From Candidatus Omnitrophota bacterium (GTDB lineage Bacteria; Hinthialibacterota; Hinthialibacteria; Hinthialibacterales; Hinthialibacteraceae): 64,000 nucleotides of DNA. Shown in pieces: positions 3,349 through 64,000 of the stretch. Position numbers and translations under genes: made by a program. The notes under the pieces are model-generated. The model did no database searches. It was not told the DNA's origin and saw only the letters and a program-made list of their open reading frames with translations. The DNA is taken from NCBI GenBank assembly GCA_003598175.1, contig QZKN01000050.1, positions 57,334 through 121,333 on the forward strand, written 5' to 3'. The number at the start of each line of letters is the position of its first letter. Within the stretch, counting starts at the first letter, position 1.

Positions 3349-3504
3349 GATGATCACCTTTTATAAGAAAATTACGCGGGTAGAGCAGGCGTTCCCGCCT
3401 GCGCTGTTCGTACAAGCGAGGACGCTTGCTTTACCCACGGATGAACGAGCGCCGGTTATTTTCATCGTTCGATGTGACCAATTGGTCATTCCGGTTTCTA
3501 TGAA

Positions 3505-8238: not shown

Positions 8239-10008
8239 ATGGCGTCTCGTAGCATCGTATGTTGTTTTTGGATCATTCTTTCTTCCCAATTTTTCATTTA
8301 CGCATGGAGTAGTACTCCGGATTTTCATTTCAATCAACCGGAAGAAAAACGTACTTCTCCCTTTTCTCCTCAAACGGTCGATGGTTTTGACGATCCGCGT
8401 TTAAGCGTTCGGGAAATGGGATTGTTCGAAGACACGGAGATGGTTCCCATGCGGGACGGAGTGCGTCTCTCGTCGACGATCTATAAACCGGTTTTGGGGA
8501 TGCCCTGGCCGGCGATCCTGATTCGTACTCCGTACGGGAAAGGAAGTTTTAGTGAAATGCAGGCGCTTGCCTATTTGGCAGGATATGCCATCATCGTGCA
8601 GGATATGCGAGGGCGATTTGATTCGGAGGGGGAGGATCGTGTATTCCAGACGGATGGATGGGGAGAATTGCAGGATGGGTATGACACGATTGAGTGGATT
8701 GCCCGGCAATCGTGGTGCAATGGCAAGGTGGGGATGTGGGGACCTTCGGCGCTGGGAATCGTTCAAGGATTGGCCGCCGGAGCGGTTCCGCCCCATTTGG
8801 TCTGTCAGGTGATCGGTTATGCGGCGGCAAAAGGCTATGGACATGCCGCGTATCAATGCGGCGTATTTCGTTTGGAACTGGTGGACAAATGGCTAAACAA
8901 ACATGGCATGGGGCATATGTATCCGGAATTTCTGCGCCATCCGACCGAGGATGATTTCTGGAAACAATACGATATTGAATCCCGCCATCACCTGATCAAT
9001 GTGCCGTCCTTGTTTATCGGTGGTTTTTACGATTGTTTTGAACAGGGCACTCTGGATGATTTTGTCGGACGCCAAACGAATGGCGCGCCCGGCGCACAAG
9101 GTCGGCAGCAACTGATTATGGGACCGTGGACCCACACCAACGAGTTCGATACGACGCAAGGTCAACTCTCATTTCCCTTGAATTCCATTTTTATCGACCA
9201 AGTGCAAACGACTCTCAAGTGGTTCAATTATTGGTTGAAAGATGAACAAAATGGCGTCAGGGATAATCCAACCGTGCAGTATTATGTCATGGGGGATGTG
9301 ACCGATCCGAATGCTCCGGGGAACGAATGGCGCACGGCGGAGATGTGGCCGCCGGAATCGCGGGAGATTGCCTTTTACCTGAATTCAGACCATTCTCTGT
9401 CTATTGTTGTTCCCTCTGTGGAAGAACAGGTTGATTCATTTGTTCTGGATCCGAATCATCCCTGTCCCACCATCGGCGGCAAGAATCTGGAGATCGCCGC
9501 GGGTCCGTATGATCAATCCGATCTCGAAGCAAGAAACGACGTGCTGGTTTTTTCGACGGAGCCGCTTCCCGAGCCGCTCGAAGTCGTCGGAAGAATACGC
9601 GCGGTTCTCTTTGCCGCATCCAATTTAACCGATAACGACTTGACAGTACGGTTGACGGATGTGTATCCGAACGGCCGTTCCATGCTGGTTTGTGACGGAA
9701 TCGCGCGGGCGAGTTTCCGGGATTCTTTTGTTGAATCCACGCCGATCACGCCGGGAGACGTGTATCGGTACGAAGTGGATTTGTGGAGCACGAGCCTGGT
9801 ATTTAACCGTGGGCATCGAATTCGCATCATTATTGCCAATACCAATTATCCGCGGTTCGATTTGAATCCGCAATACAAACAACTTGGGCAACATGGCTTG
9901 CCGGATTTTGTGGAGACGGTACTTCATTTTTCACGAACATATCCTTCTCACCTGTTGTTACCCGTAACGGCCGGAGATGTTTTTGTGAAGGATTGGAATC
10001 GCTATTAA
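8239..10008 (+). CDS. CocE/NonD family hydrolase (X-Pro dipeptidyl-peptidase S15-like), secreted
   Basis: MRDGVRLSSTIYKP...ILIRTPYGKG...IVQDMRGRFDSEGE...MWGPSALG matches the CocE/NonD alpha/beta hydrolase N-terminal region. N-terminal signal peptide present. AAAGGA RBS. Confidence 0.85.
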   Translation: MASRSIVCCFWIILSSQFFIYAWSSTPDFHFNQPEEKRTSPFSPQTVDGFDDPRLSVREMGLFEDTEMVPMRDGVRLSSTIYKPVLGMPWPAILIRTPYGKGSFSEMQALAYLAGYAIIVQDMRGRFDSEGEDRVFQTDGWGELQDGYDTIEWIARQSWCNGKVGMWGPSALGIVQGLAAGAVPPHLVCQVIGYAAAKGYGHAAYQCGVFRLELVDKWLNKHGMGHMYPEFLRHPTEDDFWKQYDIESRHHLINVPSLFIGGFYDCFEQGTLDDFVGRQTNGAPGAQGRQQLIMGPWTHTNEFDTTQGQLSFPLNSIFIDQVQTTLKWFNYWLKDEQNGVRDNPTVQYYVMGDVTDPNAPGNEWRTAEMWPPESREIAFYLNSDHSLSIVVPSVEEQVDSFVLDPNHPCPTIGGKNLEIAAGPYDQSDLEARNDVLVFSTEPLPEPLEVVGRIRAVLFAASNLTDNDLTVRLTDVYPNGRSMLVCDGIARASFRDSFVESTPITPGDVYRYEVDLWSTSLVFNRGHRIRIIIANTNYPRFDLNPQYKQLGQHGLPDFVETVLHFSRTYPSHLLLPVTAGDVFVKDWNRY

Positions 10009-13004: not shown

Positions 13005-13541
13005 GGACGTCTTTCAATAACGATGCTTCAACATTTATATAAACGGTCGTGACCGATTTATCATAATGGAGGATGAATATGTGACGCCGCCGTCCTGGCG
13101 GCATTCGGAATTGCCGGTAGGATGCCGGCGTTACAGAAAACACGGTTACCGGCGATACACCCGGCGTATCCGGCGCGATCCACCATGAAACGATCTTTTC
13201 ACTTGATTTGGATGTAACGTTAGATTGACGGATAGAATTTCATTGCTCCTGATGGATTCGAATTCGACTTGATCGTACTAAATCATTGAAAGGCATGAGA
13301 ATCAAGAGTTTGGAAGTAAATTTCAAAAAAACTCCGGGCATGATTTTCTCTTTCCCCGGATTGAATCAATTTACTGTTTTTTTTCTTCTGTTTTCATTTT
13401 TTGTATGCAATCGAATGATCGAATGGATAAAGCGGCCCCCTCGCGTTTGTCATCCGCCAATACATCCGGCCAGAGAAATACCTGGGGAGGGTTGTCTCTG
13501 ATTATCGCCGGGTCCGTACCTGATTTCGGTACTTCCTATCG

Positions 13542-13805
13542 TTACAACTCCATTTCCAATATTTCTTGTTTCATTTTTTCCAATGGGATTCTTTTGCCTG
13601 CCATAAATTCCTTTCGAGATTGTTGGATAATGTTCATGAATTCATGATTAGTGCTCAATGACAGGGATTCTTCATCCATTTCTTTTAAAGAGATAATCGC
13701 AGCAATGGGTTTATGGTGAGATGTCAGAATAATCATATCCTGATCAATCTCATCGGCGACTTCTGACAAGGATTGCTTGGCCGTGGAAAGTTCAATGGTT
13801 TTCAT
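13542..13805 (-). CDS. Phd/YefM family type II antitoxin
   Basis: MKTIELSTAKQSLSEVADEIDQD-MIILTSHHKPIAAIISLKEMDE fits the Phd/YefM fold. 4-nt overlap with the upstream RelE-like ORF. Confidence 0.7.
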   Translation of the reverse strand: MKTIELSTAKQSLSEVADEIDQDMIILTSHHKPIAAIISLKEMDEESLSLSTNHEFMNIIQQSRKEFMAGKRIPLEKMKQEILEMEL

Positions 13806-15996: not shown

Positions 15997-16884
15997 ATGA
16001 ACCATTCGTTTTTTCAATTACTGGAAACCAGACCGCTTCTCGTCGGCGACGGAGGGATGGGAACGATGCTGCTGCAGGCGGGATTGGAGCAAGGCAGCTG
16101 CGGCGAGTTGTGGAACGTGGAACGACTCGAGACCATAGCCGAGATCCAACGCTGTTACGTCGACGCGGGGAGCGATTTTATCCTGACCAACACGTTCGGC
16201 GGTTCTCCGCCGACGTTGGCCAAACACGGACTGGCCGGACGGACGGAAGAACTGAACGAGGCCGGCGTCAAGGCGGCTCGCGCCGCCGCGGATGGGCGGT
16301 GTCTGGTGTTGGGCGATATCGGACCGAGCGGCGAGATTCTCGAGCCGTATGGCGACAAAACCTTCGACGATTTGCGGGAAGATTTCAAACGGCAGGCGGC
16401 CGGTCTCGCGTCCGGTGGAGTCGATGCGTTTATCATTGAAACGATGATGGATATCAACGAAGTGCGATGCGCATTCACCGCTGTGCGGGACGTAAGTGAT
16501 TTGCCCATTATCATTTCGATGTGTTTCAAAGCGGCGGGAGATCGTTATCGAACCATGTTCGGAACCTCCGCCACGGATGCGGCGCGAGAAATGGAATCAC
16601 TCGGCGCCGCGGCGGCCGGCTCGAATTGCATGGTGGAGATCGAGGAGTTCATCCCCATCGTGCGGCAAATGCGGGAAGGCACTAGCCTGCCGATCATGGC
16701 GCAACCCAACGCCGGACAGCCGCGTTTGGAAGGGGATAAGGCAGTGTATGCGACGACGGCGGAAGCGATGATGCCCCATGTCCCCGCTTTGGTGGAAGCC
16801 GGCGCGCGTCTTTTGGGTGGATGTTGCGGCACGACGCCGGATTACATTCGCTTGCTGCGGCAATGGGTGGACAAAAGTAAATAA
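15997..16884 (+). CDS. homocysteine S-methyltransferase domain protein (Hcy-binding, MmuM/MetH N-terminal-like)
   Basis: DGGMGTML...ILTNTFGGS and C-terminal GGCCGTTPDYIRLL are the zinc/Hcy-binding signature of PF02574. Confidence 0.8.
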   Translation: MNHSFFQLLETRPLLVGDGGMGTMLLQAGLEQGSCGELWNVERLETIAEIQRCYVDAGSDFILTNTFGGSPPTLAKHGLAGRTEELNEAGVKAARAAADGRCLVLGDIGPSGEILEPYGDKTFDDLREDFKRQAAGLASGGVDAFIIETMMDINEVRCAFTAVRDVSDLPIIISMCFKAAGDRYRTMFGTSATDAAREMESLGAAAAGSNCMVEIEEFIPIVRQMREGTSLPIMAQPNAGQPRLEGDKAVYATTAEAMMPHVPALVEAGARLLGGCCGTTPDYIRLLRQWVDKSK

Positions 16885-18208: not shown

Positions 18209-19003
18209 TTACAAGTTTTTCCCCTCGATAACCAATCCCCAACGTGAGGTAAAATAACGTCTTGCCTCAATCCGCACTGACAAATGGCATGTCAGTGCTA
18301 CGGCTCCGGCCAATAAATAAAGAACGATGATTTGATAACGAACCGCTTCCTGGGGGATGACGCCGGATAGCATTTGTCCTGTCATGATGCCGGGCAATTG
18401 CACCACTCCCATCAGCATCATGCTGTTGATCATGGGAATCAAGGCGTTCTGCATGGTTTGAGCGAGATAGGGTTCGAGCGCTTTTTGCGGCGTAGCGCCC
18501 AATGCCAGCGCCGTTTCGATTTCCCCGCGATGGCTTTCGATTTCCCCTCGTAATCGATGCAAGGCGAGCGAAGCGCCGTTCGCGCTGTTGCCGATCACCA
18601 TGCCCATCAATGGAATAAAGAGATGCGGATACTCCGCCAGGTCCACGCGGAAAATCGCGATAAAAAGAAATCCGCCCAAAAACAGGGCAGAGAAATGCAA
18701 GGCAAGCCATAGCGCCAGATAGGTCTTGAAGGTGGTTTGTTTTTGCCTCTGGGCGGCGGTTACGGCGGCGACGAGGATCATGATTTCCACGACGCCCAGC
18801 AACAAAAGGGGATTACGGGACTGAAACAACCAAAACAAGAGATAGCCGACAAGCCACAATTGAAAAAACGAACGTAGCGCGCCGATCACATATTGCCGTT
18901 CCAACCGCGCGTGATTCAACCAGGATAACAGGATGGCGAGAACCACCATCAGCGAGGACAGGAGAACCTGCTGGGCGGAAATAGTCAGATACGTTGTATT
19001 CAT
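18209..19003 (-). CDS. fetB: ABC transporter permease, FetB/YbbM (UPF0014) family
   Basis: About 260 aa multi-TM protein with the YbbM-like pattern. 4-nt overlap with the upstream ABC ATPase, as in fetAB. Confidence 0.55.
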   Translation of the reverse strand: MNTTYLTISAQQVLLSSLMVVLAILLSWLNHARLERQYVIGALRSFFQLWLVGYLLFWLFQSRNPLLLLGVVEIMILVAAVTAAQRQKQTTFKTYLALWLALHFSALFLGGFLFIAIFRVDLAEYPHLFIPLMGMVIGNSANGASLALHRLRGEIESHRGEIETALALGATPQKALEPYLAQTMQNALIPMINSMMLMGVVQLPGIMTGQMLSGVIPQEAVRYQIIVLYLLAGAVALTCHLSVRIEARRYFTSRWGLVIEGKNL

Positions 19004-19737
19004 GGGAGTTTCCCTTCCAGAAAATCTTTCGTTCGGGATGATGCCGTGCGAAGCAAGTTGTCTATCGATCCTTCTTCAACGATTTGTCCGTCCATTAAAA
19101 TCAGCGATCGGCCGCCCAAGCGGCGGGCCACGTCAACATTGTGCGTCACTATGAGTAGCGTCAGTTTGTGTTGTTCATTCAATTTTCGTATCAATTCGAC
19201 GATTTGATTGGCCGCGGTGGGATCCAGCGCGGCGGTGGGTTCGTCGAGCAGCAAAACGTGTGGGTTGTTGGCCAGTGTGCGCGCCAATGACACCCGCATT
19301 TTCTGGCCGACGGAAAGGTCGGATGCATTGCGGGATTCCAATTCAAGTGGCAGCCCTGCTTGTTCCATCATTTTGTGTACAAATGTGGTTTCGTTATCGA
19401 TCGGTTGTTTGTGGATTCTCGGACCATATAGAATATTGTCCCGTACCGTTCCTGCAAAAAGGTAAGGAATTTGAGATACCATGCCAATTTCCCGGCGTAA
19501 AGTGACAATTTCCCACGCAAGGATGTTTTTCTCACGAAAAAGGATGCAGCCTCGGTCGTGGGCGTCCAATCCGATCAGTACACGCAGGATGGTGGATTTT
19601 CCCGAACCGGATGGCCCCAGAATCGTCACGATTTCGCCGGATTCGATGGAAAACGTCAATTCGTTGAGAATCTCAATTTGCTTCTGCATCGTTTCTTTGC
19701 TGCAATGTACTTCGTTAAAAGCAATCAATGCGTTCAT
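19000..19737 (-). CDS. fetA: ABC transporter ATP-binding protein (FetA/YbbL-like)
   Basis: Walker A GPSGSGKST, signature LSVGQKMRVSLAR, Walker B LLLDEPTAALD. Start taken at MNALIAF; ORF-track start at 19773 is less likely. Confidence 0.8.
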   Translation of the reverse strand: MNALIAFNEVHCSKETMQKQIEILNELTFSIESGEIVTILGPSGSGKSTILRVLIGLDAHDRGCILFREKNILAWEIVTLRREIGMVSQIPYLFAGTVRDNILYGPRIHKQPIDNETTFVHKMMEQAGLPLELESRNASDLSVGQKMRVSLARTLANNPHVLLLDEPTAALDPTAANQIVELIRKLNEQHKLTLLIVTHNVDVARRLGGRSLILMDGQIVEEGSIDNLLRTASSRTKDFLEGKLP

Positions 19738-19905
19738 GGTTTGTTCCGTTTGGCAAAGGATTGGGCGTATCAAATCTTATCGGTTGCGCGATTGAAGGAG
19801 AAGTCGGCCTATTTTGTACTCTTCGTATTCGACGGCGACTCAATCATAATTGATGGTTACAGAACGCAGGTTGAGTCGAATCGACCGATAAAGGAATTTT
19901 TTCGT

Positions 19906-21435
19906 ATGGATTCTTTAGACGCGAACGAATCGAATCGAAATCCGCTTTTCCAACAGCACATCATCCCGGTGGCTTTCGGCATGTTGCAATCCGCGCTCCT
20001 AAGGCATTTGCTGCAAACGCGCGGTGTGTCCGAATCGCAAGAGGAAAAACAGCGATTTGAGAATCAATTGCAGGATTTGTTTTTCAATTTGGAATCGTTG
20101 GTCTTTCTCGACGGCGAGCATCGGGCGGATGCGATTTTAAGCCGGTTTCTGCGCTGGAGCGGCCCCGGTTTTTCACGGCGTTTTTTTCTGGACGACGCGC
20201 CCTTGTCGCAAAACTCTTTCAACCGCGATGCGCATTTCATTTCGACGCAGATGGAAGAGATGTTGGAAGCGGCGCATTATAAAAAATTGCCGATCGAGGC
20301 TCTCGAAAAGGCGTTGGAGGAAAGTTCGTTCGAAAAAATTTTTGTACGGCTGCAAAATATCGATTTTCTCAATTATTACGTGCGTGGGTCATATATCACG
20401 GAACAACAGGAGAATCTGACGCGAAAAATGATCAAACGGTTTCATGCCGACAAAAAATGGATGGATGCGTTTGTCGCTCCGCAATCGGTGGAAATTTTCG
20501 AGGAAGTCGTCGTGATCGTCAGCGAATTGATGAATCCGGAAATCGAGGAAAACAGCGGAGTCTGCTGCGAGAAGGATCCGGAAACGATTCAGCGGGAAAT
20601 CCAACAAAATAAAGAGAAAATCGACAAGATTCTCTCGAAATACATGAAAAAAGGAAGGAAAAAACGGTTACGGCCCATTTCCAAACGGCGCAAAGCCATA
20701 CAAAAAACGGTTGAAGAAAAAATGCAGCAGCTGTTGGACAAATCGTTGGACGATTTTATCCGGGATCGCGATGCGGACCGTTCCGTGATGAAACAACTAC
20801 ATATTTATGTATACAACGATATCCCCGAAACCGATCTCGAATTGCTGTTGCCCAACGCGCAGGTGTCGTTAGGGGTGAAGGAATACATCCGACTTTGCGC
20901 ATCCGGCACGGTGACAAGCACCACAGTTGGTCGAGCGGTATTGATGCGCGGGATGAAGCGCCTTTTGACCGTCTTCAATCCGGTCTTGTTCGGCGCGATG
21001 CGATTTATCAATCGCATGAATTTCGTGCGCATTGACCAAAAATACAAACATGCGCAATACATGCTCAAACGGCGAAAGGGATGCGACGCCAAAGCGCTCA
21101 GCCATCTGGCCGATGATTATGAAAACGTCTTGAAGCGGGAAATTTTGCTTGTCTACACTTTGCTTTTATCGCAAATACGACTCTCACAAACGAACGATGT
21201 GGGACTGACGCGGAATGACTTGGAAAACCTCGCTCGACGCTTCGTTAGAGAGACGTTCGGCGTTGATTTTACGCCCGAATTCAAAAAAACACTGTCGATC
21301 ATGCACTCGTGGGGAATTTTGGAAAAGAAGGATATGGCAAATCAAACCTATTTTTACGCGGTTTCCGTCGATCAGGCCGTGGACAACACCCTCATCAATC
21401 GAATGAGTGTTAAGAATAAGATCACTCTCTCTTGA
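19906..21435 (+). CDS. hypothetical protein (~509 aa, Lys/Arg-rich central segment)
   Basis: ORF-track start 19558 overlaps the ABC ATPase on the opposite strand. First ATG with an AAAGGA RBS is 19906. No recognisable domain. Confidence 0.45.
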   Translation: MDSLDANESNRNPLFQQHIIPVAFGMLQSALLRHLLQTRGVSESQEEKQRFENQLQDLFFNLESLVFLDGEHRADAILSRFLRWSGPGFSRRFFLDDAPLSQNSFNRDAHFISTQMEEMLEAAHYKKLPIEALEKALEESSFEKIFVRLQNIDFLNYYVRGSYITEQQENLTRKMIKRFHADKKWMDAFVAPQSVEIFEEVVVIVSELMNPEIEENSGVCCEKDPETIQREIQQNKEKIDKILSKYMKKGRKKRLRPISKRRKAIQKTVEEKMQQLLDKSLDDFIRDRDADRSVMKQLHIYVYNDIPETDLELLLPNAQVSLGVKEYIRLCASGTVTSTTVGRAVLMRGMKRLLTVFNPVLFGAMRFINRMNFVRIDQKYKHAQYMLKRRKGCDAKALSHLADDYENVLKREILLVYTLLLSQIRLSQTNDVGLTRNDLENLARRFVRETFGVDFTPEFKKTLSIMHSWGILEKKDMANQTYFYAVSVDQAVDNTLINRMSVKNKITLS

Positions 21436-21502
21436 TTTAAATACGCATTGAACCAGTCGAATTTTGTTATTTCATAGGTAAGAACTATCCGTAATCCATG
21501 AC

Positions 21503-21580
21503 GCGCCGGCAAAAAGTCGGATTCAATTTTGGAACCGGTACATATTGTAGTATCAATCAACAATCTGCCACTATATATAT
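21503..21580. repeat. MITE/REP-like intergenic repeat, copy A (5' half only)
   Basis: atgacgcgccggcaaaaagtcggatt...attgtagtatcaatcaacaatctgccactatatat shares about 85-90% identity with 32617..32700 and 63792..63872. Confidence 0.7.
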
Positions 21581-32114: not shown

Positions 32115-32333
32115 ATGGAAACATCGTCCTTGCAACGGGCTATCGATACGGTCGAAGCCTTGTCTTGTGAAGATCAGGAGATACTGTTTGAATTGATCAA
32201 GAAACGCCGAGTTGAGCAGCGTCGAAGCGAAATTGCCTTGAATGCCAAGAAAACTTTGCTGGCTCTTCATGAGGGGCGAGCGAGAATCGGCGCGATTGAT
32301 GACCTCAAAAAAGATCTTTTAGATGAATCATGA
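32115..32333 (+). CDS. type II antitoxin (partner of YafQ/RelE-like toxin)
   Basis: 72-aa protein immediately upstream of the toxin with a 4-nt overlap. GAGGTG RBS. Confidence 0.55.
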   Translation: METSSLQRAIDTVEALSCEDQEILFELIKKRRVEQRRSEIALNAKKTLLALHEGRARIGAIDDLKKDLLDES

Positions 32334-32614
32334 GAAAACTGGTTTGGGGAAATAGTTTTCGGCGTGAACTCAAACGCCTGATACACGATCATCCACACTT
32401 GTCGAATAAAGTTTTTTCTGTTTTGGAAAAACTATTGGTTAATCCTTATAATCCCTCCTTAAAAACACATAAACTAAGCGGAAAATTGGAAGGATTGTGG
32501 TCCTGTTGGGTCGAATACGATTGCCGGATTGTGTTTACTTTTTCAAACAATCCCACGACAAATGAAGATTTAATTGTTTTGATTGATATAGGCAAGCATG
32601 AAGATGTGTATTAA
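32330..32614 (+). CDS. YafQ/RelE-family mRNA interferase toxin
   Basis: LKTHKLSGKLEGLWSCWVEYDCRIVFTF...DLIVLIDIGKHEDVY matches the YafQ/RelE C-terminal catalytic region. Confidence 0.7.
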   Translation: MRKLVWGNSFRRELKRLIHDHPHLSNKVFSVLEKLLVNPYNPSLKTHKLSGKLEGLWSCWVEYDCRIVFTFSNNPTTNEDLIVLIDIGKHEDVY

Positions 32615-32616
32615 TG

Positions 32617-32745
32617 ACGCACCGACAAAAAGTCGGATTATATATAGAATCGGCACATATTGTAGTATCAATCAACAATCTGCCACTATATATTGTGCAG
32701 ACAGGATGTCCGCACCACAATTTTCGACTTTTTTTACCAGGGCAT
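32617..32745. repeat. MITE/REP-like intergenic repeat, copy B (full length, ~129 bp)
   Basis: Imperfect terminal inverted repeats gacaaaaagtcgg / cgactttttttac. Internal hairpin acatattgt-agtatcaatca-acaatctg. Followed at 32757..32782 by a caagggcag...ctgcccttg hairpin. Confidence 0.7.
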
Positions 32746-32809
32746 CATTAAAGAATTGTGCGGCAAGGGCAGAGTCGTTTCTGCCCTTGCTTTGGCAGCC
32801 TTATCATTT

Positions 32810-34265: not shown

Positions 34266-34295
34266 CGTAGGGGCGGTTCGCGAACCGCCCCTACG
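34266..34295. promoter_or_regulatory. 30-bp perfect palindrome cgtaggggcggttcgcgaaccgcccctacg
   Basis: Exact dyad symmetry read directly from the sequence. It lies 35 bp upstream of the 32810..34231 gene start and about 120 bp downstream of the radical SAM gene stop. Followed by the aatgtaacgccggcatcctgccggc motif. Confidence 0.5.
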
Positions 34296-34412
34296 ATAAT
34301 GTAACGCCGGCATCCTGCCGGCTTTGCCGTATCATGTTGCAGAGATGTTTAATGAGAATTAATATGGTACAATTCAAGTTCATTTATTCAAGTAACAAAA
34401 TGGCGAATGTAT

Positions 34413-35312: not shown

Positions 35313-35478
35313 GGCATTCCACCTGTCAAAATGTAACTTTGGCATCCTGCCGGCACAGACGCCAAGGGCAGCATCGTTTCTGCCCTTGCGGATTTCACGT
35401 AATCTTATCATGATTCCTGCAGGAATCCAAACAACGTTGCCGTTGCAACCGGCGCCAAAGAGATCATAGAGGGAAACC

Positions 35479-35994
35479 ATGGATAATCATAACCGTTACG
35501 AAAAATACTCGTTATGGATTATTTTTCTATCCAACCTCGTATCTCTCTCAATTTACGCGATCGGAATTTATATCGTTGCGATTTTTGGAACTCCGTTTTT
35601 GGTTTGTTATCTTTTGTTTTGTGGTTGGATTGAAATGAACGTAATGAGATGGAGTTGTCGAAGCTGTTATTATTATGGAAAAGTATGCGCTTTCGGAAAA
35701 GGAAAATTATGCTCCTTCCTGTTCAATCGGAAAGATGGAAAAGAATTTACGGAGAGAAAAATTCGTTGGTACAACATCCTGCCGGATTTTATGGTGTTTC
35801 TGATTCCCCTGTGTTTAGGTATATTCTCACTTTTTCGCAATTTCAGCTGGTTGATTGGATTGCTGCTTCTATTGTTGCTGTTGCTTTCTTTCGCGGGAAA
35901 TGCATTCATCCACGGTTCGCTCGCCTGCAAGTATTGCAAACAGCAGGATATGGGATGTCCGGCGCTGGAACTGTTCAATAAGAAGAACGTTTGA
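35479..35994 (+). CDS. hypothetical Cys-rich polytopic membrane protein (AT-rich gene)
   Basis: 3-4 TM segments, poly-Leu tract, and cysteine clusters CRSCYYYGKVCAFGKGKLC and CKYCKQQDMGC. Visibly lower GC than neighbours. Confidence 0.45.
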   Translation: MDNHNRYEKYSLWIIFLSNLVSLSIYAIGIYIVAIFGTPFLVCYLLFCGWIEMNVMRWSCRSCYYYGKVCAFGKGKLCSFLFNRKDGKEFTERKIRWYNILPDFMVFLIPLCLGIFSLFRNFSWLIGLLLLLLLLLSFAGNAFIHGSLACKYCKQQDMGCPALELFNKKNV

Positions 35995-36057
35995 TTGCAC
36001 AGCGCCGATGCAGACGGCAAGGGCAATGGCGTTCTAGCCCCCCTATTCTTTTTTCGT

Positions 36058-38295
36058 TCATGAACCGGGTGATGAAATCAGATCACAATACCTGCCTAGC
36101 CAATACGGCAGAAGCCAGAAGACTCCGCAGCTTTCCAATCGCCCCTGCGCATCATGAAAATCGCCGGAAACGGCTTCCCACGGATTTTTATCCCAGCGCA
36201 TGACGCCGCGTTCGCTTGGCGGCAACATGCGGTCGAGTTGCAGCGGCTCGAGCATCGGCCTTCGGACTAATTGGATATCCTCGCGTCGGGAATTGTCGAC
36301 TGTCCACTGCCGTAAGTCGAGAGGGCAATCGCGCAAAAAGGCAACGCTATCCTCGAGATGAAAATTTGTCCCGCCGACAAGCGCGAAAATGAAATGGTTG
36401 AACGGATTCTGATCCTGTTCGATGGTACGATAGGCCCAGGTCAGGCCTTCCAGATAAATCGAGCGTAGTCGAGGATCGTTTTCATATAGCAACAGCCCGG
36501 GCGCGGCCAACGCCAGCAGCTCGTCGTCGATATGCGTGCGTTCGGACAGACCGTAGGCCTTTGGCCGACGCACGTTTTCCGCATACCCGTGATTTTCGAT
36601 CAAGTTGATATATTCATGCTGGTATTTTTCATTCGATGTAATATGATAAGTTGTTTTTAAAAACGACAGGATTTCAAACGAATTGATGGGACGTTCGACC
36701 TGCCAGTCCGGATCGTGATTCAGTTTTTCCGGCGACCACACGCCCCAGCGTGTGGCTTCGCCGTCGAGATCACGCAGGACGTAGCCGCCGTCGATGATAT
36801 GATCCATGATTTTTCCGACGTGACGGCGAATCCTCTCCTTCTGCGCATCGTCCGCCGCCAAATCATAATAAAACAGGTAGCCGAACATATGCCCGGTGAT
36901 TTCGTCGGAACTGGTGTCGCCTTTCCAAAGCCATTTGCCGTCCACCGATGGCCGCCAACGGGTTTCCACGACTTTATAACGTGGATCGTGGACGCGGCGT
37001 TCCACCGCTTCCGCAGGGGAAACCTTCTCGTTCGCGTCCGCCATTTCCGTCCAGGTTGCGGGGACGACTGTACGCGCCACGAATCCGTCTGTTTGGGTGA
37101 CGGTTTGCAGAAATTCGAGCGCATCGTAGGCCTGATCCGCGTTCGCCTTGGCCTGTGGATCTTTGGTTACGGCAAAACGCAGGCTTTCCATCGCCAAATA
37201 CATTGCGGTGTATTGCCCATCGTTGTCGTCGTCGCGCGGTAGAAATTGCGTCAAGTCGTTTGGATCGGGGAAAAAGCATTTTTCCACGAGTCCGGGCGGG
37301 CGCACGTGACGTTTCAAACAGATATCGAGGTAGTATTCCGCTTTTTCGGCGAGCGTCATTACGCGCTTTTTGATCGCGCTGACGCCGCCGGCGGTGGCAA
37401 TCCACACCGCTCCTTCCGCGTCGAAGGCAATATCGCGCACGTCGTCGCTGAGCAACCATCTGCGGCTATGCCGAAGAGACCAATTCACGCCGTCAAAGCG
37501 CGCAACGCCCAACGCCGTGCCGGCCCAAAGCGTTCCGTCCGGCGCGAAGGTTAATGAGCGTACGTCATAATACGGCAAACCTTCCTTGTTGGTAAAAGAA
37601 GCCGTTCGCGTCCCGTTTTCGTAAACATCGATCCCTCCCAAACCGCCGATCCACAGTCGGCCGTCCTCCGCAACCGCCAACGCATTGAGTTCCGCGGAAA
37701 TGAGTTCGTCGCCGCGATAATAGCGGCGCAAACCGTCTGCGTTTTGCCGGTACAAACCTACGCCGGTTGCAATCCATAAATCTCCATTCGGATCCAGCGC
37801 CGCAGCGCGCACGTTACGCGACCATCGCTCGTCGATTCTTCGCCATTCGTTTTGGTTCTGCTGACATGCGCCATCCGGTCCCATCACTATCATTCCATCC
37901 GCGGTCGAAACAATAATCGTAATGGGTAAATCCACGTCGGCAATTTTCGACGTCCCGGTTTTGTTTATACGATACAAGCCATCCCACGCTCCAATCCAAA
38001 CATCCCCGTTTTGATCGACGAACAGATTGAACACCGGCCCATTCGTAACGCCGGAATCCTTGATCCATTCGCCATTTCGCATAGTGAACAGACCATTTTT
38101 CGTTGCGGCATAAATCCATCCGTTTTGATCCACCGCAATTGCGCGCACATCATTGGCCGCGTCGCTCGCCGGGATCGGATAGGCTTCCCGATACTCCTGC
38201 AGGAACGGATCGTCGGCGATGGATGCGGCGGGGGATGTCGGATTCCCCACGCAAAAAACGGTAATCAGCCCCCATAATAATAATGGATGGATCAT
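36058..38295 (-). CDS. secreted protein with N-terminal two-component-regulator-type beta-propeller repeats and a large C-terminal domain of unknown function
   Basis: Repeated DxNGxxWIGTxxGLxxx propeller blades. Signal peptide MIHPLLLWGLITVFCVG. Start set at MIHPLL. Confidence 0.55.
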   Translation of the reverse strand: MIHPLLLWGLITVFCVGNPTSPAASIADDPFLQEYREAYPIPASDAANDVRAIAVDQNGWIYAATKNGLFTMRNGEWIKDSGVTNGPVFNLFVDQNGDVWIGAWDGLYRINKTGTSKIADVDLPITIIVSTADGMIVMGPDGACQQNQNEWRRIDERWSRNVRAAALDPNGDLWIATGVGLYRQNADGLRRYYRGDELISAELNALAVAEDGRLWIGGLGGIDVYENGTRTASFTNKEGLPYYDVRSLTFAPDGTLWAGTALGVARFDGVNWSLRHSRRWLLSDDVRDIAFDAEGAVWIATAGGVSAIKKRVMTLAEKAEYYLDICLKRHVRPPGLVEKCFFPDPNDLTQFLPRDDDNDGQYTAMYLAMESLRFAVTKDPQAKANADQAYDALEFLQTVTQTDGFVARTVVPATWTEMADANEKVSPAEAVERRVHDPRYKVVETRWRPSVDGKWLWKGDTSSDEITGHMFGYLFYYDLAADDAQKERIRRHVGKIMDHIIDGGYVLRDLDGEATRWGVWSPEKLNHDPDWQVERPINSFEILSFLKTTYHITSNEKYQHEYINLIENHGYAENVRRPKAYGLSERTHIDDELLALAAPGLLLYENDPRLRSIYLEGLTWAYRTIEQDQNPFNHFIFALVGGTNFHLEDSVAFLRDCPLDLRQWTVDNSRREDIQLVRRPMLEPLQLDRMLPPSERGVMRWDKNPWEAVSGDFHDAQGRLESCGVFWLLPYWLGRYCDLISSPGS

Positions 38296-41943: not shown

Positions 41944-42246
41944 AACCGCAATGTAACGCCGCCGTCACGACGGCATTTTCCTTGAAAGCCGGCGGAATGC
42001 CGGCGTTCCATTTTTACATAAACCTTCATGATTATTAAGTCACAGCGAAGGATAAAAAGTGGTTGTGGCGCGGATCTCCGGTCTGCACATGCGAGCAGGA
42101 TGCCTACGCGACGGCTTTTCATGTTCACTCAGTAGAGATTATAGTTGCGAAATGGCGGCGCGAAATACCCTTTCGAGGAAAGAAAAGCAAATCCATTTCC
42201 TGAGAACATTTCTTACTGGAATCATCCGCAACGAATACGTTTCATA

Positions 42247-47212: not shown

Positions 47213-47428
47213 ATGAAATTTACAGCAATAATTGAACGCGAAGGTGAAGGATACGTATCGCTCTGTCCGGAGTTGGATATCGCAAGTCAAGGGAATAGCG
47301 TCGAACAGGCCAGAGACAATCTTCGTGAAGCTCTGGAACTTTTTTTCGAGACCGCATCACCCGAAGAAGTCAAAGAGCGACTTCATGATGAGATCTTTGT
47401 CACCCAACTTGAGGTGCTATATGGGTAA
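47213..47428 (+). CDS. hicB: HicB family antitoxin
   Basis: MKFTAIIEREGEGYVSLCPELDIASQGNSVEQARDNLREALELFFE matches HicB/UPF0150. GAGGTAA RBS. Confidence 0.8.
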   Translation: MKFTAIIEREGEGYVSLCPELDIASQGNSVEQARDNLREALELFFETASPEEVKERLHDEIFVTQLEVLYG

Positions 47429-47642
47429 ATTGCGTATCCTTTCCGGAAAAGAGGTATGCTCCATCCTAAAAAATCATGGTTTTGAGGAAATTCGCCAACG
47501 CGGGAGTCACGTTGTCATGCAGAAGAAATTATCGCAAGGCACGATAACGGTTCCTGTTCCGGACCATGATGAAATTCGAATGGGAACACTGCAATCCATA
47601 ATCCGGCAGTCCGGATTGCCTCGAAGTGAATTTGAATCATAA
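47421..47642 (+). CDS. hicA: HicA family mRNA interferase toxin
   Basis: LKNHGFEEIRQRGSHVVMQK...TVPVPDHDEIRMGTLQSIIRQSGL matches HicA/YcfA. 8-nt overlap with hicB. Confidence 0.8.
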   Translation: MGKLRILSGKEVCSILKNHGFEEIRQRGSHVVMQKKLSQGTITVPVPDHDEIRMGTLQSIIRQSGLPRSEFES

Positions 47643-49346: not shown

Positions 49347-49421
49347 TTTTTTGTCAGAAAATTGATATGAAGAGTGATCGTGTGCTGACAGGATGTCTGC
49401 GTTACAATCGAGGAGACAGTA

Positions 49422-50117
49422 TTACAATTCCGGATCGACGCCCAGGGCGCGAAGTTTTGCCGCCAGTTTTTCCTTGATTTTTCGTTCCTGTTCGGCGTAT
49501 ATTCGTTGCTCAAAGGCGGTTGGATACATGACGCCTTTCCGGTCGCACCAGCGCAGCCAGAGGGCCGGGTATTGTTCGTAGTCGCCTTCCCACAGGGTCA
49601 ATCCCAATTCCACTTTGTCCAGCCAGTGAGTTTGTTTACGATGGTATTTTTCATCCTGCAGTTCATACACCAGCAGAACGGTATCGAGAATCTCATGATC
49701 GGGATCGAAGATGACGTAGTAGGGAACGCCGATTTCCTGATAAATGCGGAATTTCCGGTCGTTTTCTTCGCCTTCCCGATTGGAGACGACTTCCACGACC
49801 ACATCGGGCGGTTTGCCGAAGACCCAGGTGAAGTAGACGCGATTTTTTTTGGCGCGTTTGTCTTTGGCCGGTTTCACATCGAGGCTCAGCAGCATGTCGG
49901 GAACCAGGGGAGGTTCGTGCGGGTGATAGTATAAACCCACGTTGGTGCAGGCCAGAAACTGCCGGGGGCAGTTCCAGGAGGAATATAACGACTCTACCAA
50001 CAATCGATGTTGTTTGTCCGCAAACACGCTGTCCACCGGTGTATCGTCCTCTGTGATGAATTGTTCGTAATCGATTTCGTCCAAACGGGGAAACGACGCC
50101 ATTGTAATGGAGTTCAT
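49422..50117 (-). CDS. Uma2 family (DUF820) restriction-endonuclease-fold protein
   Basis: PDVVVEVVSNREGEENDRKFRIYQEIGVPYYVIFDPD is the PD-(D/E)xK-like Uma2 core. AGGAAGCAG RBS. Confidence 0.7.
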   Translation of the reverse strand: MNSITMASFPRLDEIDYEQFITEDDTPVDSVFADKQHRLLVESLYSSWNCPRQFLACTNVGLYYHPHEPPLVPDMLLSLDVKPAKDKRAKKNRVYFTWVFGKPPDVVVEVVSNREGEENDRKFRIYQEIGVPYYVIFDPDHEILDTVLLVYELQDEKYHRKQTHWLDKVELGLTLWEGDYEQYPALWLRWCDRKGVMYPTAFEQRIYAEQERKIKEKLAAKLRALGVDPEL

Positions 50118-51442: not shown

Positions 51443-51862
51443 TTATATCTTGTCGAGATTATCGTCGGTTGATAAAACTCCTTTTTGTTCCAAATAGATT
51501 TTTATCCTTTTGGAAAAATTTCTGGCGTCTCGAACCATCACTTCCGCATCCTCTTTTTCGATTTCCGATGAGACAATATAATCGGCAATATCTCTTTGAA
51601 TCTGTTCATGAGCCAATATTTCAGCCCATTCCTTCTCGATTTCACCTTTTTGAACAGGTAATTGACCAAAAAGTCGTTTTGCAGAAGCATGTCTTTTTAC
51701 ATCAATGCCATGAACCAAAAGAGCTGCTTTGGTCGCGTGCAAAACAGCATAATAGGAACGTGAAATGGAATCTTCGAATTATTCCAATGATAAAAGTGCT
51801 TCAGCGGATTTCAATGATTTTATAGAACGATTCCACTCGTCCACTATCGCCTCTTGATTCAT
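51443..51862 (-). pseudogene. HEPN domain toxin interrupted by an in-frame TAA
   Basis: ATG 51862..51860 encodes MNQEAIVDEWNRSIKSLKSAEALLSLE. TAA at 51781..51779 interrupts it. The same frame continues FEDSISRSYYAVLHATKAALLVHGIDVKRH...RDARNFSKRI. ATGA overlap with the upstream MNT gene. Confidence 0.6.
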
Positions 51863-52194
51863 GCGAATGAAATCCCTTCTTCTTGAATCCGATCACAAAA
51901 CACCGATTTACGGAGTTTAAGACGTTCCCACTCTTTGATCGTAAAAACAAAAATGGAGGGAACCACATTCGTTCCGATCGAAGGCCGAATCCCGATACTG
52001 GCGACTTGCTTTTTTAGTTTACGATCACCTTCGCGAATCAAAATTAGCAAATCCAAATCCGAATCACGTCTCGAATCCCCTCTTGCCTTTGAGCCATAAA
52101 GAAGAATATTTTCGACTAAATCCGGAAATCGATCATATAAATTCTCTCGATAGGAATTTAACCATTTTTTTTCTTCTTCATTCAACATTACCAT
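51859..52194 (-). CDS. minimal nucleotidyltransferase (MNT) family antitoxin
   Basis: LYGSKARGDSRRDSDLDLLIL carries the GS-x9-DxD nucleotidyltransferase motif. Confidence 0.75.
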   Translation of the reverse strand: MVMLNEEEKKWLNSYRENLYDRFPDLVENILLYGSKARGDSRRDSDLDLLILIREGDRKLKKQVASIGIRPSIGTNVVPSIFVFTIKEWERLKLRKSVFCDRIQEEGISFA

Positions 52195-53369: not shown

Positions 53370-53673
53370 GGATTCCTCGCGTATTTATTTGATTTTTCGA
53401 CTCGAATAAGTTGATTTATTTTACACCAAAAATTTGGGGAGTTTAGGACATCAGCCTCCTTTCCCTCCGGTCCGTGTTTTCACTCCCTACAATCCGGAAG
53501 ATGTGTGGAGCCGGTATACGAATCTCTTGTATCACGCGATTGTTGATTGAGGGAAAAATTTTGTTGGCAAGGTTCCAATTTCAATAACAACAATTCCATG
53601 ATATTATAAAGGTATATCATAAAAATCATACAGCTAATGTGGAGATTGTCGGGTGGAATGAATATCGATGGAA

Positions 53674-53706
53674 AAGGTGGGTTTCGCTTTGCTCAACCCA
53701 CCCTAC
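53674..53706. repeat. 33-bp hairpin-containing repeat aaggtgggtttcgctttgctcaacccaccctac, copy 1 (identical copy at 55755..55787)
   Basis: Exact 33/33 match. Stem ggtgggtt / aacccacc. Confidence 0.85.
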
Positions 53707-53715
53707 ATAGATAAA

Positions 53716-53883
53716 ATGAAAGTCAGTGAAATAATCAAAATTCTAAAAGAAGACGGCTGGTATCTTGATCGTACGCGGGGAAGCCATCGGCAATTCAAAC
53801 ACCCGATCAAACGGGGGAAGGTGACCGTTTCGGGTAAAGAATCGGACGATATGCCCATAGGATTGAAGTTCAGCGTTTTTTAA
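53716..53883 (+). CDS. hicA: HicA family toxin
   Basis: MKVSEIIKILKEDGWYLDRTRGSHRQFKHP is the canonical HicA N-terminus. The ORF-track start 53668 reads through the 33-bp repeat; true start is uncertain (53668 or 53716). Confidence 0.7.
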   Translation: MKVSEIIKILKEDGWYLDRTRGSHRQFKHPIKRGKVTVSGKESDDMPIGLKFSVF

Positions 53884-53912
53884 CAAGCGCAAATCGATAG
53901 GAGAAAATTACA

Positions 53913-54140
53913 ATGAAATATGCGGTTGTGATTGAAAAAGCGGAAAATAATTACGGGGCCTACGTTCCCGATCTTCCCGGATGCGTGGCGACAGCCGGCG
54001 CCGTCGAGGAAACCCTTCACATGATTAAAGAAGCCATCGAATTTCACATTGAAGGGTTGAAACTGGACGGCGAGCCAATCCCCAAACCATCCGCGATCTG
54101 TGATTACGTCGAAACCGAAGACATTTCTCACATCGCCTGA
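53913..54140 (+). CDS. hicB: HicB family antitoxin
   Basis: MKYAVVIEKAENNYGAYVPDLPGCVATAGAVEETLHMIKEAIEFHIEG. TAGGAGAAA RBS. Confidence 0.85.
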   Translation: MKYAVVIEKAENNYGAYVPDLPGCVATAGAVEETLHMIKEAIEFHIEGLKLDGEPIPKPSAICDYVETEDISHIA

Positions 54141-55595: not shown

Positions 55596-55754
55596 TCCAT
55601 TCTCCTTCCTCAGGGCATCGACGGGGACGCACTCAGATTATAAGGGATTCCATGATTCTTCGTCATCGAGGTTATACGAATGTTTTGAGAGATTGTAGAT
55701 TGTTGGGTCGGGTGTATGCAATGCATCCTGTTTGTTTTTGAAATGGCAATCGTA

Positions 55755-55787
55755 AAGGTGGGTTTCGCTTTGCTCAACCCACCCTAC
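55755..55787. repeat. 33-bp hairpin-containing repeat, copy 2
   Basis: Identical to 53674..53706. Confidence 0.85.
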
Positions 55788-59218: not shown

Positions 59219-59563
59219 AACGACTCATCCTTTCATTGCCATATTACTGCCAATCTTTCTAAAGACTACAATTTCTACCCGACACAGATTGAACTCGAAT
59301 CGGGTAAAGCAAGCGTCTCGCTTGCACGTACAATGCAGGCGAGGACGCCTGCTTTACCCACGAATTGAAAAACTAAAATTATAGTGGATAAAGTTTCTCT
59401 GCATATGCAATGATCCTATTATCCGGTTGACGCTGGGAACGTTGTATCATATCATCCCCTCCCAATCAATAGTCGTATACAATATCATTTCATCAATTGA
59501 ATAAATAAAGATGGATCGATGATCTGAGAAGAGATATCGTAGTAAAAAAGATTGGGGAAAACC

Positions 59564-63762: not shown

Positions 63763-63791
63763 TATTAGCGGCGGCAACCGTCCGTATGCAA

Positions 63792-63918
63792 AAATGCGCC
63801 AGCAAAAAGTCGGATTACATTTTGGAACCGGCACAGATTGTCGTATCAATCAACAATCTGTCACTATATATTGTGCAGACAGGATGTCCGCACCACAAAT
63901 TTTGACTTTTTGCCGGGG
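63792..63918. repeat. MITE/REP-like intergenic repeat, copy C (full length)
   Basis: Terminal inverted repeats gcaaaaagtcgg / tgactttttgcc. Internal hairpin acagattgt-cgtatcaatca-acaatctgt. About 88% identical to copy B. Confidence 0.7.
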
Positions 63919-64000
63919 TGTTTTCAAAGCCCTTTCTGCTGTTCGAACTCCCGCGTCCATGCAATCGATTTGGGAATCCCTTCCGACAGCGACGTTTGCG

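Follow-up and report, generated by a model that had tools for sequence, protein, structure and literature searches.

A probable MITE-like repeat with an inner REP-type hairpin in the intergenic DNA of a Candidatus Omnitrophota bacterium

We report a small repeat in the genome of a Candidatus Omnitrophota bacterium that is probably a non-autonomous, MITE-like element carrying a REP unit, assembled as a modular mosaic in the manner of BIMEs. The repeat recurs at several loci and in several samples, is bounded by inverted ends, is non-coding, lies between genes and is accompanied by modular derivatives, and its inner hairpin, H2, belongs to a REP-like class. An initial annotation of this DNA had taken it for a non-autonomous mobile element or REP-type family; the further copies, the 21-nt inverted ends, the absence of coding, the derivatives and the REP-class hairpin described below uphold that classification, in which transposition itself is what we infer.

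The stretch of DNA analysed here, referred to as the window, comprises 64,000 nucleotides of contig QZKN01000050.1 and has a G+C content of 49.9%. A second contig, JAGUZP010000123.1 (L018, assembly GCA_020060745.1), overlaps its last 11.6 kb exactly and continues for another 9.8 kb. This contig is 132 kb long and was reached through the GH39 gene beside copy 63792, whose product shows 100% identity to a protein recorded under "MAG: Candidatus Omnitrophota bacterium" (locus tag C4527_08170). The 73.8 kb of window plus extension past the window end were scanned for hairpin units, and about 84 kb of the lineage was read in all. By Pfam, the window carries ordinary chromosomal genes, namely glycoside hydrolases, GFO/IDH/MocA oxidoreductases, RecQ, an ABC transporter and several toxin–antitoxin genes; Pfam searches of the window, its 10-kb extension and a further contig, L025 (~84 kb in all), turned up neither a transposase nor a RAYT, and the window and extension gave no integrase. 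Toxin–antitoxin and related small genes are dense, at window positions 13542-13805, 32115-32614, 47232-47642, 49422-50117, 51859-52194 and 53668-54140, with further members in L018 at 16307-16864 and 18395-19492. This small-gene set is made up of a Phd/YefM antitoxin, a YafQ/ParE-type toxin whose 72-aa partner lies upstream, two HicA and a HicB, together with two Uma2-family genes, a nucleotidyltransferase and Fic/DUF4172. The contig of a 75%-identical GH39 homologue (L022) comes from a 60% G+C organism and has neither synteny nor the element, so GH39 homologues offered no route to relatives.

Three composite copies (two full, one left module) and two solo hairpin units are present in the window:

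32614-32748, minus strand: full composite copy (copy 32617), the strand being set by the REP tag and the more stable fold on the minus strand.
32614-32634: 5' inverted end of this copy, ATGACGCACCGACAAAAAGTC, whose initial A also closes the TAA stop codon of the toxin gene.
32694-32720: REP-type unit of this copy, preceded by a left module with two hairpins.
32726-32748: 3' inverted end of this copy, GACTTTTTTTACCAGGGCATCAT.
63776-63924, minus strand: full composite copy (copy 63792).
63776-63793: 15-18-nt 5' extension of this copy, common to copy 21503 and the variant L023a.
63794-63811, 63872-63898 and 63904-63924: 5' inverted end, REP-type unit and 3' inverted end of this copy.
21483-21578, minus strand: left module only (half copy 21503), with 5' extension, 5' inverted end and hairpins H3 and H1.
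49378-49408, minus strand: solo REP-type unit, ATTGTAAC GCAGACA TCC TGTCAGC.
42062-42092, plus strand: solo REP-type unit, GTTGTGGC GCGGATC TCC GGTCTGC, newly found.

The two full copies are 91% identical over 109 nt, the half copy is 89-91% identical to them over 76-81 nt, and a profile of the copies recovers them with nhmmer at E = 1e-30 to 1e-50. The solo units match the hairpin unit at 22/27 positions (49381) and, in the opposite orientation, at 23/27 (42063-42089), where the best match in any of twenty shuffles of the 73.8 kb reached at most 20/27. Four sites had been listed originally, and the expected sequences are present at every one of them. The list was nevertheless incomplete, since the second solo unit at 42062-42092 has now been added, and the site at 49380, which had been described as a 3'-half-like fragment, is real by the shuffle control yet is a solo hairpin unit and not a broken 3' half.

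The copies lie mostly in gaps between convergent genes. Copy 63776-63924 occupies nearly the whole gap from the stop of the GH39 gene (63762) to the stop of a convergent epimerase gene (63924-63926), and the solo unit at 49378-49408 begins 14 nt past the stop of a Uma2 gene, again in a convergent-gene gap. The exception is the unit at 42062-42092, which is oriented opposite to the other copies and is flanked by two minus-strand genes. All four originally listed sites do stand directly after stop codons, as had been pointed out, and all four are convergent-gene gaps. We counted about 13 convergent junctions among the window's 58 gene junctions on the ORF and Pfam map, and on that map an outcome of four out of four appears unlikely by chance (roughly 0.002). 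A replication-linked orientation bias was considered and rejected, as the GC skew tracks gene strand only.

One copy directly follows a toxin–antitoxin pair, and we therefore also considered that the repeat might be an integron attC site of the kind found behind gene cassettes. The location directly after stop codons, the strand-specific folding and a YafQ/ParE-type toxin gene as one neighbour would all suit such a site. None of the full copies, however, has RYYYAAC / GTTRRRY core sites at its ends, the copies are spaced 10-30 kb apart among ordinary chromosomal and housekeeping genes with no cassette array, and Pfam found no integrase in the window and extension; we accord this reading a practically negligible probability.

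The anatomy of the element is best read from its four full copies, 32617, 63792, L025 and L024, which measure ~135 nt, or up to ~150 nt with flanking extensions. Their ends form a 21-nt inverted repeat, 5' ATGACGCGCCGGCAAAAAGTC ... GACTTTTTGCCGGGGCATCAT 3', with 19 of 21 positions complementary in the consensus; it is found in all four (diverged in 63792) as well as in the deletion variant L023a. The inverted termini recognized originally are hence present, and the repeat is longer than had been described. Between the ends lies a left module of ~80 nt with hairpins H3 and H1, followed by the 27-nt unit TGTGCAGACAGGATGTCCGCACCACAA that forms H2. An internal hairpin acagattgt(n11)acaatctgt had been reported as conserved; it is perfect in copy 63792 but only there, the other copies pairing at 7 of 9 positions.

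The derivatives of the element, which include truncated, internally deleted and tandemly amplified forms, break along these module boundaries. The half copy at 21483-21578 ends exactly at the junction where the REP-type unit starts in the full copies, and both solo units start at the very position where this half copy stops. The L021 copy comprises the left module and H2 without the 3' end. Two variants share the contig L023: L023a keeps both ends and H2, has lost ~30 nt of the middle and is without hairpins H1 and H3, and L023b carries H2 five times head to tail with a period of 40 nt. The array in L023 (751-952) amounts to 5.1 tandem copies of a 40-nt unit with the REP-type hairpin, at 91% matches, and stands directly after a left module; the 965-bp contig ends 13 nt past it, the repeat having probably broken the assembly at this point. 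Outside the inverted repeat, a 5' extension of ~15 nt (AACTATCCGTAATCC-like) is shared by 63776-63793, 21483-21497 and L023 at about 300-320 (L023a); it could be a target that insertion prefers, an additional module, or the mark of a longer subfamily. Target-site duplications, a check that had been proposed for a mobile element, gave a divided picture: a TA stands at both ends of 32617 and L024 (two of the four full copies) and is lacking in L025 and 63792, and a palindromic TA is indistinguishable from an extension of the inverted repeat.

Beyond the window, further copies were recovered on four other contigs from four samples (L021, L025/L026, L024 and L023), in answer to the initial annotation's stipulation that an absence of further copies genome-wide would count against a repeat family. 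The route to them was provided by spurious ORF calls in the public annotation of the element. The public record calls a 48-aa ORF (P0121) across copy 63792, and its sole relative, P0122, led to L021; a profile of the translation of the ATG frame, run against 1.84 billion protein representatives, retrieved P0125, P0126 and P0127, whose contigs yielded L025/L026, L024 and L023. The L021 copy sits between divergent genes and the L025 copy between co-directional genes; the contigs L023 and L024, both short, stem from other samples. Half copy 21503 and the L025 copy are 97% identical over the 78-nt left module, counted from the 5' inverted end with the extension excluded, a similarity that suggests recent copying. 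L025 also holds copies, 88-97% identical, of two other small repeats of the window, and on this ground we assign it to the same or a very close lineage.

Scans by DNA pattern were run on collections from which the source contig was absent. An 18-mer scan of genome representatives, a collection outside which the source genome lies, returned 17 matches, equal to the number estimated by chance, with none extending beyond ~20 nt. A gapped two-anchor scan of metagenome contigs, in a collection without the source contig or L021, returned L019, a chance match within coding sequence, and L020. The pattern would have been matched by L021, had the scanned collections contained it. We rejected L020 as a copy and read it as chance, given its C4A4 telomere-type repeats, like those of a ciliate nanochromosome. 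This contig (Ga0075467_10213596, 1066 bp) ends in CCCCAAAACCCCAAAACCCC, a ciliate-type telomere, and the 20 + 12 nt that it shares with the element, more than the pattern requires, are treated as coincidence. Three scans of viral contigs gave no match, nor did blastn when run on plasmids, on phages and on 5,426 complete genomes of E. coli, and a full-text literature search found no paper naming both Omnitrophica and REP sequences. The proposal that the family is specific to this lineage is plausible from these sequence searches, the collections scanned by DNA pattern being ones without the source contig. As a separate observation, P0129 (257 aa, from the representative library) gave a weak match of alternating VLNAFRHHRFPR and CAQRLSASQIST and resembles a translated DNA repeat array, possibly CRISPR, of an unrelated organism.

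The ORF calls raise the question of whether the element encodes a small protein starting at an ATG in the 5' end (MTRRQKVGFNFGTGTYCSINQQSATIYCADRMSAPQ...). This ATG and its open frame are kept in 63792, 21503, L021, L025 and L023, and public annotations call ORFs across several copies. Yet the differences between copies are spread evenly over codon positions 1, 2 and 3, and copy 32617 has a 1-nt indel that shifts the frame. The annotations disagree over the frame as well (P0121 and P0122 versus P0125-P0127), and within L023 P0127 reads the same DNA unit in three frames. A small protein is consequently very improbable: the element is non-coding. The "hypothetical proteins" P0121, P0122 and P0125-P0127 (NCBI, JGI, ENA), which lie on L018, L021, L025/L026, L024 and L023, are translations of the repeat in various frames and are annotation artefacts.

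The link to REP sequences comes from H2. Read on the window's minus strand, it is ATTGTGGT-GCGGACA-TCC-TGTCTGC, that is, a GTGG tag, a stem of 7-9 bp and a TCC loop; written as RNA, the hairpin GUGCGGACA-UCC-UGUCUGCAC has 9 bp including one G-U and agrees with the published dimensions of REPs (20-40 nt, 6-13-bp stem, short loop). We defined a class pattern from TGTRRY, a 7-nt stem, a TCC or TCA loop and a second 7-nt stem, with at least six pairs. It matches 10 times in 73.8 kb, versus 0.03 times per shuffle and twice in 145 kb of unrelated loci; the 10 include an AT-rich, doubtful match at 20773 that lies inside ORF 19558-21435. Class members are the three H2 units of composites (two in the window, one in L021), the two solo units, and the following additional units:

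13078-13137, spanning both strands: inverted pair of class units with the tags outside, TGTGAC GCCGCCG TCC TGGCGGC and, on the other strand, TGTAAC GCCGGCA TCC TACCGGC.
34298-34328, plus strand: class unit, AATGTAAC GCCGGCA TCC TGCCGGC, adjoining a GTAG...CTAC palindrome at 34267-34294.
35330-35360, plus strand: class unit with 6/7 stem pairs, followed directly by a copy of another repeated hairpin at 35360-35389.
41950-41980, plus strand: class unit, AATGTAAC GCCGCCG TCA CGACGGC.

The REP-like class of which H2 is a member is strongly over-represented in this genome. The stems of the additional members (13078 and 13107, which make up the inverted dimer, 34298, 35330 and 41950) are GCCGGCA/TGCCGGC, GCCGCCG/TGGCGGC and GCCGCCG/CGACGGC; across the class the stem sequence varies and pairing is maintained, a hallmark of REPs. 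The units fall in gaps of the ORF map, except for 35330, in the listed 5' end of an ORF whose true start is uncertain, and 20773. Their tags are GTGG (composites, 42062), GTAA (34298, 35330, 41950, 49378) and GTGA (13078), each with one extra base; GTGG is accepted in one published family, and GTAA and GTGA are not among the degenerate forms listed for the GTAG superfamily (PMC3733652).

Between copies, H2 is 89-100% identical and the left module 73-97%, and H2 is by this measure the most constrained part of the element. The same contrast between the hairpin and its surroundings could be accounted for if the repeat were a host binding-site cassette comparable to the BIMEs of E. coli, its unit kept by a chromosomal protein (a nucleoid protein, gyrase or polymerase) and spreading only rarely. 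The occurrence of the unit alone, in dimers and in tandem clusters, as described for BIME components (PMC2817692), also accords with such a cassette. The binding protein is, however, purely putative, and a recognition site for a transposase would predict the same conservation; we judge the binding cassette quite unlikely and favor a mobile, MITE-like repeat.

The folding of the element was assessed by structure prediction. On either strand, both full copies fold far better than their shuffles (z of -3.7 to -5.5). With RNA parameters, the minus strands reach -41.7 and -46.5 kcal/mol versus -33.1 and -36.9 kcal/mol for the plus strands, and the consensus folds show the same order for three sequences (minus -34.6, plus -17.8 kcal/mol) and for seven (minus -21.1, plus -14.6 kcal/mol); DNA parameters give a difference of the same sign and smaller size. 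The minus-strand structure contains 27 G-U cells that correspond to A-C on the plus strand, with the caveat that the structure was predicted on the minus strand, and the structure predicted for the plus strand has 10 G-U cells of its own. Covariation is not significant, being reached by 111 of 500 shuffles with three sequences and having a term of about zero with seven, and there is one clean compensatory change, from G-C to A-U, in H3. We conclude from these predictions that the element has a genuine fold and that the minus strand is the one that probably matters, in agreement with the orientation of the REP tag.

These properties invite an explanation in which the repeat is a functional structured RNA, transcribed from the minus strand as a 3' UTR terminator or stabilizer or as a multicopy small RNA, with its fold under selection. 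The better folding of the minus strand in single copies and consensus, its G-U cells that would be A-C mismatches on the plus strand, the compensatory change in H3 and the position of all window copies just downstream of a co-oriented minus-strand gene would be expected of such an RNA. Several observations weigh against it. The covariation lies within the shuffle control, and the strand asymmetry is partly built in through the choice of strand for the prediction. Truncated, deleted and tandem versions are typical of selfish repeats and not of RNA genes; L023a, in particular, is without H1 and H3 yet retains both inverted ends. Related solo units at 34298, 41950 and 42062 are antisense to their flanking genes, no conserved promoter or terminator was found at the copies, and there is no Rfam match. 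We consider a functional RNA unlikely and retain the non-autonomous repeat as the preferred reading. No Rfam family reached its gathering threshold anywhere in the window, where the only signal was tfoR noise (E = 2.1, 11.9 bits versus 70), and a known ribozyme, riboswitch or small RNA was accordingly rejected.

Other small repeats share this stretch of the genome. REPIN-like inverted dimers with GTAG/GTAA tags outside occur in the window at 3380-3434 and 59304-59357, which are about 82-89% alike, and in L025 at 9359-9466, where the copy is 88% identical; an example reads GTAGA GCAGGCG TTCC CGCCTGC, with GTAAA GCAAGCG TCCT CGCTTGT on the other strand. The inverted pair at 13078-13137 is also REPIN-like. 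Perfect GTAG...CTAC palindromes are found at 34267-34294 of the window, at 12651-12679 of L018 (1,024-1,052 bases past the window end) and at 9279-9310 of L025, with sequences such as GTAG GGGCGGT TCGCGA ACCGCCC CTAC and GTAG GGGCAGG TTTGAAA CCTGCCC CTAC. They have the appearance of canonical GTAG-tagged REPs and so imply that the genome encodes a RAYT. A GTAG hairpin with an 11-nt loop has two 89% identical copies, 53661-53706 and 55742-55787 (on the minus strand, GTAG G GTGGGTT GAGCAAAGCGA AACCCAC); the copies are direct repeats at a distance of 2 kb, with a HicA/HicB pair and a beta-lactamase-family gene between them. Another small repeat, a hairpin with a stem of 11 bp, GGCAAGGGCAGA...TCTGCCCTTGC, is located 13 nt past the full element ending at 32748 (32761-32790), abutting the class unit at 35330 (35360-35389) and in the convergent gap 35994-36058 (36015-36040), and may be terminator-like. 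Direct-repeat pairs were seen at 46872-46995/47653-47776 (77%, near a HicA gene) and at 1625-1730/7642-7747 (82%), the latter being the N-terminal region of two proteins with a prepilin-type N-methylation motif.

Compared with known families, the element resembles the ERIC/Correia MITEs and the REP/BIME repeats but, by sequence search, appears to share no sequence with them. MITEs are defined as small (less than about 200-400 bp), bounded by terminal inverted repeats and without a transposase gene (Delihas 2011, PMC3184786). Our repeat has a length of 135-150 nt, no transposase gene, terminal inverted repeats round a core and multiple dispersed copies. With the ERIC/Correia type (PMC3184786) it further has in common a length of ~100-160 nt, inverted repeats enclosing a non-coding core, folding into a long stem-loop, many copies at gene 3' ends and the presence of truncated or variant copies. 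It differs in sequence, as blastn found no match in the 5,426 E. coli genomes, which carry ERIC, in having a TA flank at only two of four full copies, and in the REP-type unit inside.

For this inner unit, the survey of Di Nocera et al. 2013 (PMC3733652) offers what we regard as a direct precedent by analogy: REP tags degenerate to GYAG and GTRG, with GTGG in Opitutus (Opitutus terrae), stems contain G-T pairs, REPs favor gaps between convergent or unidirectional genes, REP dimers are embedded in longer palindromes, and tyrosine transposases can have long flanking inverted repeats. The GTAG REPs and BIMEs (PMC3733652; Nunvar et al. 2010, PMC2817692) resemble the present units in the unpaired tag, the G+C-rich stem of 7-9 bp with G-T pairs, the 3-nt loop, the extragenic location, the complementary stem changes and the arrangement as solo units, inverted dimers and tandem clusters. 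Here, in contrast, the tag is GTGG, GTAA or GTGA plus one base and not GTAG, and no RAYT was found in the sequence read. Comparable composites are Anabaena variabilis GTAG-15, Halothiobacillus CGTC-1 and the "TIRtrons" (PMC3733652), in which a REP resides inside a longer, repeated element with unrelated inverted repeats. They are unrelated to ours in sequence; our element has one REP unit where they have a dimer, and ~80 nt more of conserved sequence with two further hairpins. REPINs, in which a single long hairpin forms from two inverted REPs (Bertels and Rainey 2011, PMC3116915), are likewise non-autonomous REP-based repeats thought to move as a folded single strand. The composite contains a single REP unit with unrelated modules and takes its long-range pairing from the unrelated 21-nt ends; with only one REP unit, its identification as a REPIN was rejected.

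Taken together, we envision that the element, which has no transposase of its own, would be mobile and copied in trans into further intergenic sites, the enzyme being encoded elsewhere and recognizing the inverted ends, the REP hairpin or both. Candidates are a DDE transposase, which would act on the ends, and a tyrosine (HUH) transposase of the REP/TIR-associated type, which would work on the folded single (minus) strand. Copies would persist at sites that tolerate an insertion, for the most part the gaps of convergent gene pairs, and would then decay or rearrange one module at a time, as when an end or the REP unit is lost, the interior is deleted or the REP unit is amplified in tandem. Transcripts entering a full copy are predicted to fold stably (-33 to -46 kcal/mol) and could stall exonucleases or polymerase, which in this scheme would be a side effect; any part played in blocking transcripts between convergent genes is likewise hypothetical. 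More speculatively, the class of TGTRRY, 7-bp stem and TCC may form a REP superfamily in its own right, found in Omnitrophota and related lineages and served by a dedicated single-strand (HUH) transposase, the 135-nt composite being its preferred vehicle, or the composite may have been co-opted by the host, for which it would form a strand-specific structure, in RNA or DNA, where convergent genes end; we think either version unlikely, although if one of them were true, the near-invariance of the hairpin across samples amid drifting surroundings would reflect a specific protein partner.

The element opens no new mechanism. Its practical value lies in annotation, where at least five public "hypothetical proteins" are merely translations of the repeat, and in assembly, which the repeat probably breaks, several copies being on short contigs or near contig ends; it also provides a marker for tracking this uncultured lineage across samples. 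For the biology of the group, it adds an Omnitrophota example to the repertoire of small repeats (MITE, REP, BIME), and, as a case of a REP unit carried within an element that has inverted repeats at its ends, it is relevant to the exchange of modules between REPs and MITEs.
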